From an uncultured Gammaproteobacteria bacterium (lineage in GTDB: Bacteria > Patescibacteriota > Patescibacteriia > Magasanikbacterales > UBA922), in NCBI GenBank assembly GCA_964394405.1, contig CAYMVY010000002.1, positions 92 through 64,091 on the forward strand: a stretch of 64,000 nucleotides of DNA. The letters are read 5' to 3'. Below the pieces are notes generated by a model. The model was not told the DNA's origin and searched no databases. It saw nothing but the letters and a program-made list of their open reading frames with translations. The position numbers were made by a program, and so were the translations under genes. Below, piece after piece: positions 53,617-55,665 of this stretch. Positions within the stretch are counted from its first letter, which is position 1. Every line of letters begins with the position of its first letter.

Positions 53617-55665
53617 ATGAGCTATAGAAATAAAGACATTCGATCGAAAATTAAGTGGGGGATTGCAGGTATATTAGTGTTATTAGTTGTATCAAGCGGT
53701 TTTGTGTATCCACAACCACTCAATGCAGTAATTTCACGGCTTAATTCTGTTGCTAAATTAGGGCTTCCTCAGATTCCTGAAACCCCATTCCAGCTCGGAT
53801 TGGATTTGCAGGGTGGAGCTCATTTGGTATATGAAGCAGATATGAGTGCGATTCCTGAGACTAACCGTGCAGATGCTCTTGAGGGTGTGCGTGATGTGAT
53901 TGAGCGTCGTGTGGGAGGAATCGGAGTTTCTGAACCACAAGTACAGACAGGTAAAGTCGGCGATTCATATCGATTGAGTGTTGATTTGCCAGGAATTGGA
54001 AATGTTGAAGATGCAATTAAACTTATTGGTCAGACACCTATTTTGGAATTTAAAGAAGAAAATAAAGAAGCTCCTCGTGATCTCACTAAGGATGAAGAGG
54101 AGTTCATGAAGACATATAATGCTGAGGCAAAGAAAAAAGCTGAAGATATTTTGAAACGTCTCAAGAAAAAGGAAGTGTTCGAAGATCTTGCAAAAGAACT
54201 TTCAGAAGATGAGCAGAGTAAAAATAATGGAGGATATCTGTCATATGTGAATTTGAAAAACATGTATGCGGAGATTTATGACTGGGCAGCAAGTTCGACT
54301 GAAGGGTCGATATCATCACGTGTTATAGAAGCTCCAGATGGATATAATATTTTGAAACGCGGTAAAGAGCGTGATGGTGGAAAAGAAGCGCTTGCAAGTC
54401 ATATTTTGATTTGTTATTTGGGTGCAGTGAATTGTGACGCTCCGATGTTTAACAAAGATGAAGCGCGCGCAAAAGCACAGGAAATTTATGACAAAGCTAC
54501 TGGTGATAATTTTGCGACACTTGCTGAAGAGAATTCAACTGATCCTACCGTGTCCCTCAATCAGGGTGATTTGGGTTGGGTTCCTACTGGTATTATGGTC
54601 CCCGAATTTGAGAACGCTTTGTTCGGATCTGAGAAAGGTCAGATTATTGGCCCAGTCGAAACTCAGTTTGGTTTTCATATTATTTACAAGAAAGATGAAC
54701 GGGTTTCAAAAGAATATGAAGTATCTCGCATCTTGATTAAAACTCATACCAAAGAAGATCTCGTCCCTCCGGTAGATCAGTGGAAAGAGACGGGATTGTC
54801 AGGAAAACAATTGGCTCGTGCAGAGGTAGTCACTGATCAGCAGACTGGTGCGGTACAAGTTGCTCTTAATTTCAACGAAGAGGGTACCAAATTGTTTGCT
54901 GAAATCACTGAGCGCAATCTTAATAAGACTGTTGCTATATTTCTCGATGGCGAAGTAATCAGCGCTCCGACAGTACAGGCAGTCATCCGTGATGGAAAAG
55001 CTGTTATTACTGGTGCTGGAAATATACAGGAGGCGCGTCTTTTGACACAGCGCTTGAATGCGGGAGCGCTTCCAGTTCCTGTTGAGCTTGCAAGCCAGCA
55101 GAAAGTGGGTGCGACATTGGGTGCAGAATCAGTTGCAATGAGTGTAAAAGCAGGAGTCGTGGGTGTGATTATCATTATGTTATTCATGATTCTCTATTAT
55201 CGCCTGCCAGGATTTCTTTCAGTTATCTCATTATCACTCTATATTGTTGTGACTCTCTCTATTTTCAAACTGATCGGTGTCACGCTTACTCTTGCGGGTA
55301 TCGCAGGATTTATTCTGTCGATTGGAATGGCGGTTGATACCAATATTCTCATTTTTGAACGTTTGAAAGAGGAGTTGCAAAGAGGAAAAAGTCTCAAAGT
55401 TGCGGTTGAAGAAGGATTCAAACGAGCATGGACTTCGATTCGAGATGGTAATGTCTCAACGCTTATTACTTGCGTACTTTTGATTTGGCTCGGCACAAGC
55501 TTTGTAAAAGGCTTTGCAGTAGCGCTTATCATTGGTGTATTGGTAAGTCTGTTTAGTGCGATTACTGCAACTCGTGTAATGCTCCGATTTGTGGTGCCTT
55601 GGTTTACCAAACGCGATGGTGGAAAGTTATTCCTCGGCAGTGGCCATTCTACTGAACAAAAATAA
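53617..55665 (+). CDS. secD: Protein translocase subunit SecD with an inserted PpiC-type (parvulin) PPIase domain
   Basis: SecD N-terminal TM and P1 domain, C-terminal 6-TM core. A central ~100-aa segment ASHILICY...[20 protein letters not shown]...[18 protein letters not shown] matches the parvulin signature. Confidence 0.8.
   Translation: [682 protein letters not shown]

Follow-up and report, generated by a model that had tools for sequence, protein, structure and literature searches.

Introduction

In the established view of SecDF, an emerging chain is bound by the P1 head, which swings as protons flow (PMC6028853). There is still debate on how chains leaving the Sec channel are handed over to folding factors, and contacts of SecDF with SurA, PpiD and PrsA-like proteins have been proposed only recently, from low-resolution electron microscopy, AlphaFold docking and in-cell tomography. 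AlphaFold models dock the two parvulin domains of SurA on the SecDF P1 head (PMC9987972), and PpiD-YfgM, a membrane-anchored, parvulin-containing chaperone, is reported to be stationed at the SecYEG exit of Escherichia coli (PMC9643414). In Mycoplasma pneumoniae, a dome of PrsA-like PPIC lipoproteins (Mdp436/444/489) sits on SecDF-SecYEG; only one of its PPIC domains is catalytically intact, and substrate density touches that domain (bioRxiv 10.1101/2025.04.25.650208). Here, we describe a secD gene in a 64,000-nucleotide stretch of contig CAYMVY010000002.1 (the window), assigned to the Magasanikbacterales of the Patescibacteria (also called the candidate phyla radiation, CPR), whose product carries two parvulin units within its own polypeptide.

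Both parts of this protein, and their cooperation in trans, are already known, and it is the covalent fusion for which no published description was found. A full-text literature search, covering few subscription journals, returned neither a SecD-parvulin fusion nor a permuted or nested parvulin.

A parvulin insert in SecD

The secD gene occupies positions 53617-55665 of the plus strand, as given by the open reading frame (ORF) list, its translation and the TIGR01129 match. All coordinates below refer to the window, residue numbers refer to the 682-amino-acid (aa) product (the window SecD), and every feature of the gene lies on the plus strand. Between the SecD_1st and SecDF_P1_head domains, Pfam Rotamase_3 (E = 2.6e-41; 141 bits, cutoff 22.5) and Rotamase (E = 4.9e-41) match in two stretches each, which confirms a parvulin insert in SecD far beyond chance. 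The insert measures about 230 aa and lies at the boundary between SecD_1st and the P1 head. Thermus thermophilus SecDF (PDB 3aqp) aligns with the window SecD in two blocks, residues 51-147 with Tth 25-117 and residues 375-657 with Tth 142-423, from which it follows that some 230 residues replace about 25 at the connector between P1 base and head. The head/base boundary was taken from this alignment and the Pfam domain limits.

When scanned alone, the two halves of the insert each returned a parvulin. Residues 146-254 matched Rotamase (E = 9.8e-18; 65.4 bits, cutoff 21.7) over profile positions 10-95, corresponding to aa ~165-253 and lacking the N-terminal beta1, and residues 254-392 matched Rotamase_3 (E = 6.5e-26; 91.6 bits, cutoff 22.5) at aa ~255-360. 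The first unit, Parv-A, is a degenerate and apparently circularly permuted parvulin whose core, from the helices through beta4, spans aa 150-254 (54064-54378; predicted local distance difference test, pLDDT, 84-93). The second, Parv-B, is a complete parvulin of normal topology at aa 255-362 (54379-54702), predicted to be nested in Parv-A. It is followed by a return strand at aa 363-377 (54703-54747), a permuted beta1' which, judging from DSSP, covariation and single-unit homologues, would complete the Parv-A sheet.

Outside SecD, the best PDB sequence matches of the insert were SurA, PrsA, PpiD, Par10 and Pin1. The SurA match reached E = 1.6e-23, with both SurA parvulin domains aligning and P2 aligning best. 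No Pfam match to SurA_N, Trigger_C or a related chaperone domain was found in the window SecD at E <= 0.01, and the NCBIfam models of PrsA, SurA and PpiD align over the parvulin part only, far under their cutoffs. As the SurA_N/trigger-factor-like domain is absent, the window SecD is not a member of the SurA, PrsA or PpiD families, although it plausibly works like them.

The remainder of the protein is SecD throughout. TIGR01129, the NCBIfam equivalog domain model of SecD, matches aa 60-656 with 379.6 bits (cutoff 244.4), and the reading frame runs from ATG to stop without interruption. Pfam places Sec_GG (PF07549) at aa 56-78, SecD_1st (PF21760) at aa 90-149, SecDF_P1_head (PF22599; E = 3.5e-28, profile positions 17-114) at aa 390-487 and SecD_SecF_C (PF02355) at aa 490-650, the last three above their cutoffs. 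The AlphaFold2 model has the topology of SecD, with a first transmembrane helix (TM1), a large extracytoplasmic P1 and then five TM helices. TM1 lies at aa ~8-30 (53638-53706; a model helix at 8-30, with topology assigned by homology to 3aqp), and its position makes everything up to aa ~489 extracytoplasmic. The N-terminal P1 base, comprising Sec_GG and SecD_1st and equivalent to Tth SecDF 25-117, covers aa 56-149 (53782-54063) and ends in the strand TPILEFKEE; the head subdomain of P1 and the segment leading back into the base (PF22599; Tth SecDF from residue 142) cover aa 378-489 (54748-55083). TM2-TM6 lie at aa 490-662 (55084-55602; PF02355), with five model helices at aa 500-662. They include the proton-relay aspartate D574 in TM4, which aligns with Tth D340, is invariant in 105 close relatives and is kept in every sequence covering that position in a pool of 302. 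As D574 is universally kept, the motor part appears intact. The best Foldseek matches of the full-length model were the SecDF structures 5xan, 5yhf and 3aqp (E = 1e-22 to 1e-19). The window protein thus shows every SecD feature that could be examined and, on sequence grounds, is considered a functional SecD paired with SecF.

The first-pass annotation of this stretch had proposed a SecD with an internal parvulin-type domain, and the Pfam matches, the PDB sequence matches and Foldseek all bear it out. The peptide it quoted (ASHILICY ... GDLGW ...) is found at aa 260-361, and PF00639 and PF13616, the Pfam entries it had named, match well above their cutoffs, so that the segment is not ordinary P1-head sequence devoid of rotamase similarity. 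It had placed the domain within the head of SecD. The extracytoplasmic P1 location holds, and the insert sits at the junction of P1 base and head and not inside the head fold. Likewise, the range it gave, residues ~280-380, captures the second parvulin and misses the first of the two domains present. Its view that the translocon motor and a domain of foldase type are physically joined agrees with a single SecD polypeptide in which the catalytic residues of Parv-B are complete.

Predicted nested topology

The structure models, covariation and single-unit relatives all point to Parv-B being nested in the beta4-beta1' hairpin of Parv-A through a rigid two-stranded ribbon. They support a chain path that would lead from the base through the Parv-A core and the ribbon into a complete Parv-B, and back along the ribbon to the Parv-A beta1' and the P1 head. 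In the AlphaFold check that the first-pass annotation had suggested, the insert was modelled as parvulin folds with high pLDDT: the full-length AlphaFold2 run (105 sequences) gave a mean pLDDT of 81.8, with 85-94 in the insert, and the insert alone (19 sequences) gave a pLDDT of 92.5 (91.6-92.5 over five models) and a predicted template modelling score (pTM) of 0.72. DSSP found unbroken 24-residue strands at 242-265 and 352-375 in both runs. The end points of both strands sum to 617, as expected for an antiparallel ribbon.

Covariation was measured as mutual information with average product correction (APC) along anti-diagonals of an alignment of 186 sequences (effective number, Neff, ~126). 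The signal was highest at i+j = 617-619, where mean z reached 0.48, 0.85 and 0.78 (22-24 pairs). Between the beta4 strand of Parv-A and the trailing strand, 6.8% of pairs have z > 2.5, against 0% between beta4 of Parv-A and the ASHILICY strand; the latter instead covaries with the Parv-B core. In the window SecD, the trailing strand, aa 367-376, follows Parv-B and not Parv-A.

Relatives with a single unit show the same order of strands in a simpler setting. In P0134 the His-bearing strand comes after beta4 ('...FGYHIIKK...EEISASHILFKT'), and the single-unit Komeilibacteria SecD in L024 reads '...SDFGYHIIF...AEVQARHILIKT...PEQW'. Single-unit homologues have '...ARHILIKT' where the window SecD has its return strand. 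Pfam aligns single units only from about profile position 29, which, with the His strand placed after beta4, indicates that the SecD-inserted unit is circularly permuted. We infer that Parv-A, too, attains its parvulin fold via circular permutation.

A different topology, with each unit permuted separately and hairpins formed by beta4A-betax and beta4B-betay, was considered and rejected. It is contradicted by the unbroken 24-residue strands of the two AlphaFold2 runs. The registers it would produce, i+j of ~506 and ~726, are flat, the lone high value at i+j = 734 (z = 0.75) comprising 7 pairs, and it is also disfavoured by the joint loss of the Parv-B histidines H262 and H354 in relatives.

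Single domains of the insert superpose well on known parvulins in Foldseek, with template modelling scores normalised to the target (TMt) of 0.78-0.88 and root-mean-square deviations (rmsd) of 2-3 A for PrsA (2jzv/6xd8), SurA-P2 (4g2p), Pin1 and Par-type structures. No PDB entry in that search superposed both parvulin domains; the score normalised to the query (TMq) stayed at or below 0.39. The permuted and nested arrangement would add a new topology to the parvulin fold.

Active sites and proposed role

Parv-B carries the catalytic residues of a parvulin and Parv-A does not. The tetrad of Parv-B is H262/D309/T349/H354 and its proline pocket L319/M327/F331, positions which we take to be equivalent to the Pin1 tetrad H59/C113/T152/H157 and pocket L122/M130/F134. 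Across 105 close relatives (59-83% identity), H262, H354 and F331 show 100% conservation, position 309 holds only D or E and position 349 only T or S, and L319 and M327 are almost invariant. H262, T349 and H354 are retained in distant ABY1-type and Peregrinibacteria relatives. Parv-A has N244 at the second catalytic His position (90% of close relatives) and R371, in the return strand, at the first, and no His-bearing strand precedes it. The residue pattern of the two units recurs in 38 diverse representatives with two units and among 116 relatives of Peregrinibacteria type. Both H262 and H354 are retained in 33 of the 38, and the 2 representatives without H354 are also without H262.

A cysteine pair, C266/C273 (54412-54435), lies just after beta1 of Parv-B. 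Both cysteines are present in 140 sequences, neither is present in 142, and no sequence is mixed; the pair is the second-strongest covarying pair of the insert. In the lineages that have it, the pair likely forms a disulfide, placed where Parv-B starts.

The position of the insert at the connector beside the head, its extracytoplasmic location and the conserved parvulin active site fit a foldase/chaperone arm acting in cis at the Sec exit, and by analogy with SurA, PrsA and PpiD we consider this role probable. Unfolded secretory chains would exit SecYEG and be captured by the SecD P1 head, whereupon the attached two-parvulin module would act in cis on the emerging chains. Parv-B would catalyse prolyl cis/trans isomerisation, with Parv-A and the ribbon serving as a binding or spacer surface like the inactive P1 of SurA. 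The module may in this way do the job that separate PrsA, SurA, PpiD and Mycoplasma Mdp lipoproteins do elsewhere. The analysis itself establishes the identities of the domains, where the insert lies, how its residues are conserved, its predicted topology and its spread among lineages; peptidyl-prolyl isomerase (PPIase) activity, an effect on Sec substrates and any link to the swing of the head are inferences.

An extended version of this role can be put forward tentatively, although we think it somewhat unlikely. The rod might be coupled to the proton-driven swing of the P1 head, so that the motor pulls the chain and sweeps an active isomerase across the SecYEG exit, amounting to a translocation-folding machine powered by the proton-motive force (PMF) in one polypeptide. 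It might then be the sole extracytoplasmic foldase, replacing PrsA-type proteins in many CPR bacteria, with a nested topology previously undescribed for the fold. The first-pass annotation had suggested that the fusion may be a compact solution in a minimal-genome bacterium. With profiles of Parv-A and Parv-B derived from the family, neither the window of 64 kb nor the +-6 kb around 27 related loci bearing the junction yielded another parvulin.

Several points weigh against a cis-acting foldase arm of this construction. The Parv-B histidines are gone in a few relatives (P0152, P0144, P0125), and catalysis is therefore dispensable in some lineages. An intact tetrad is no guarantee of activity, and the chaperone function of SurA and PrsA is largely independent of PPIase activity. 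By Pfam, the module is without the SurA_N/trigger-factor-like domain that carries most of the substrate binding in SurA and PrsA. As to the structure, the covariation signal is modest at this Neff and ignores phylogeny, the ribbon pairing was derived solely from DSSP strings and covariation, and it is uncertain how the module is positioned with respect to the remaining SecD (pTM of the full-length model 0.46).

Some of these points would suit a non-catalytic arm for substrate capture, in which the insert enlarges the binding surface of the P1 head and acts as a holdase or ratchet aiding PMF-driven pulling, isomerase chemistry being irrelevant or vestigial. Parv-A is degenerate in all 38 of the diverse two-unit representatives, Parv-B has itself lost its histidines in some lineages, and some single-unit forms are apparently too degenerate for Pfam to detect (P0149). 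Parvulin domains in SurA and PpiD are generally known as binding or regulatory modules, and the P1 domain of SurA binds peptides (PDB 2pv1). However, the tetrad and proline pocket of Parv-B are conserved at ~100% across relatives that are only ~35% identical elsewhere, which a capture arm hardly explains without selection on the active site, and we regard this alternative as unlikely.

Distribution among relatives

In a survey of SecD length and domain content, of the kind that the first-pass annotation had called for, the fusion proved widespread across several CPR classes and not peculiar to this genome. All of the 120 best matches to the window SecD measure ~680 aa and have an identical Pfam set, those with names being labelled 'SecD' of Candidatus Magasanikbacteria, Parcubacteria or Patescibacteria, and the top 120 matches of a second search likewise share the architecture. 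Searching 1.84 billion representatives clustered at 50% identity with the P1 region gave 218 clusters at E < 1e-30. Among the best 150 clusters, 100 were SecD with a parvulin insert, comprising one-unit (n = 22), two-unit (n = 40) and three-unit (n = 14) forms and fragments (n = 24); 8 insert-bearing clusters were SecDF-fused forms of ~880-1,100 aa. Mapping with hidden Markov models of the module showed insert length to be quantised, at ~0, 100-125, 200-247 and 310-375 aa. The three-unit forms belong to Peregrinibacteria / Gracilibacteria, and their inserts of 310-375 aa hold about three units and a helical segment.

Genomes of GTDB species were scanned with one peptide pattern, and the counts are therefore lower bounds. 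The junction between Parv-B and the head was present in at least 26 loci, in CPR lineages; informative titles were Magasanikbacteria, Uhrbacteria, Falkowbacteria, Komeilibacteria, the Parcubacteria group and Peri-/Peregrinibacteria. Most of the other GTDB matches listed cover the parvulin part only and represent stand-alone parvulins of other phyla, and three longer matches (L051, L056, L073) are weak, at 31-32% identity. Every credible organism name of an insert-bearing SecD is Patescibacteria/CPR.

Nine CPR-type SecD-parvulin loci (L001, L005, L010, L012, L018, L019, L022, L023, L025) occur in species-representative metagenome-assembled genomes whose titles, implausible for such loci, are 'Bathyarchaeia archaeon', 'Candidatus Binatia' or 'uncultured Gammaproteobacteria bacterium'. 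These bins are probably mislabelled or contaminated, and the nine loci were excluded as evidence of spread beyond CPR. Larger inserts, or SecD-SecF fusions that keep the insert, were seen in P0161, P0164, P0166, P0180, P0217, P0230, P0255 and others, in P0138, P0148, P0185, P0193, P0215 and P0268, and in loci L021 and L026. P0149, P0190 and P0256 contain an insert the size of one unit (~110 aa) with no Pfam parvulin match, representing either extreme degeneration or a different inserted domain.

That the number of units is 1, 2 or 3 depending on the lineage would be in keeping with a length-tuned spacer. The insert could then be a structural spacer, docking device or regulator which contacts the cell wall, S-layer, YidC or a host-cell surface, or gates the P1 swing; by prediction the two parvulins form a stiff rod with a long ribbon (pTM of the insert as given above), inserted at the hinge connector. 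Such a role does not require conservation of catalytic residues, the known extracytoplasmic bacterial parvulins all act on unfolded proteins, and the neighbouring genes suggest no partner, which makes this explanation improbable. An artefact, whether a chimeric assembly, a prsA-like gene fused by frameshift or a decaying pseudogene, has a negligible chance of being correct, and we found no point in its support. The uninterrupted frame has SecD sequence on both sides of the insert, and none of the motor residues is lost. The architecture recurs in hundreds of homologues sampled from many sources, and the identical protein is present in NCBI and, together with SecF, in an independent Logan assembly (contig L081), which excludes a chimera.

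The preferred reading, a cis-acting foldase arm, bears on how secreted proteins are handed to folding factors. A fusion conserved across several CPR classes is independent evolutionary evidence, of the 'Rosetta-stone' kind, for joint action of parvulin chaperones and the SecDF head at the translocon exit, and a SecD of this type could serve as a simple single-chain system for studying SecD-parvulin coupling. It also gives a hint of how very small bacteria may keep proteostasis of the envelope economical. The insert-bearing proteins are annotated plainly as "SecD" even though their precomputed Pfam entries show Rotamase, a labelling that leaves a systematic gap in annotation.

Genomic neighbourhood

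The gene secF (55671-56600, plus strand; TIGR00966, 277.4 bits against a cutoff of 160) begins 5 nt downstream of secD, an arrangement repeated in contig L081 and in L024. The secA gene, encoding 928 aa, lies 2.4 kb upstream of secD (48420-51206, plus strand) and was recognised from its SecA motifs and C-terminal zinc finger by reading the translation. Its 3' end is overlapped by 56 nt, counted from the first start codon, by a 107-aa DUF3850/ASCH ORF (51151-51474, plus strand; E = 2.6e-19), whose true start is probably a later ATG.

Directly upstream of secD, the plus-strand ORF at 52677-53504 encodes 275 aa with an N-terminal TM or signal segment, a Thr/Ser-rich linker and a Peptidase_C39_2 domain (E = 3e-12), consistent with a secreted or anchored C39-like cysteine peptidase. 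Directly downstream of secF, two plus-strand ORFs encode 479 aa (56923-58362) and 312 aa (58390-59328), and the second product has a TM segment at its N terminus; neither has a Pfam match at E <= 0.01.

Further downstream, an AdoCbl-II (cobalamin) riboswitch on the minus strand (63525-63591; 44.6 bits against a gathering score of 36.5) precedes a minus-strand cluster at 62834-63418, 60667-62853 and 60105-60641. By sequence reading, the products are a secreted protein of 194 aa, a Thr/Pro-rich surface protein of 728 aa with a C-terminal anchor and a membrane protein of 178 aa. The riboswitch and the three genes may constitute a vitamin B12 scavenging system in a CPR genome.

Comparison with known systems

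Canonical SecDF (T. thermophilus 3aqp/5yhf, Deinococcus radiodurans 5xam) shares the TM core, proton-relay aspartate, P1 base and P1 head with the window SecD, but has only ~25 residues where the latter has ~230. We know of no solved SecDF with an inserted domain at the base/head connector.

The Mycoplasma dome resembles the window SecD in that PPIC domains are located directly at SecDF in a genome-reduced bacterium. In contrast to the window SecD, the association is non-covalent, the PPIC domains are not within the SecD polypeptide, and the dome consists of large lipoproteins that form a folding chamber.

PpiD and SurA had been named at the outset as the proteins that provide such a function in trans. 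They stand as counterparts, and PrsA is an equally near analogue, the cell being probably a monoderm member of the CPR. PpiD differs from the window SecD in being a separate, SecY-associated protein. Its parvulin domain is catalytically inactive.

PrsA of Bacillus and Staphylococcus is an extracytoplasmic and membrane-tethered parvulin that works on Sec substrates in monoderm bacteria, as the insert is proposed to do, and in PrsA, too, the parvulin is a domain inserted into another. The PPIase domains of PrsA superpose with Parv-B at TMt of 0.83-0.88 (2jzv, 6xd8). Unlike the insert, PrsA forms a dimeric lipoprotein of its own, which has an NC chaperone domain, a single parvulin and no covalent link to SecDF.

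SurA of E. coli (PDB 1m5y) is both the best Foldseek match and the best PDB sequence match of the insert, and also has two parvulin domains, P1 being inactive and P2 active. What sets SurA apart from the window SecD is that it is soluble, a protein by itself, and built around an N/C chaperone core (SurA_N). The two-domain arrangement of SurA does not superpose on the insert (TMq 0.36, 221 columns, rmsd 15 A): the parvulins of SurA follow one another in normal topology on flexible linkers, whereas in the insert one is predicted to be permuted, with the other nested within it.

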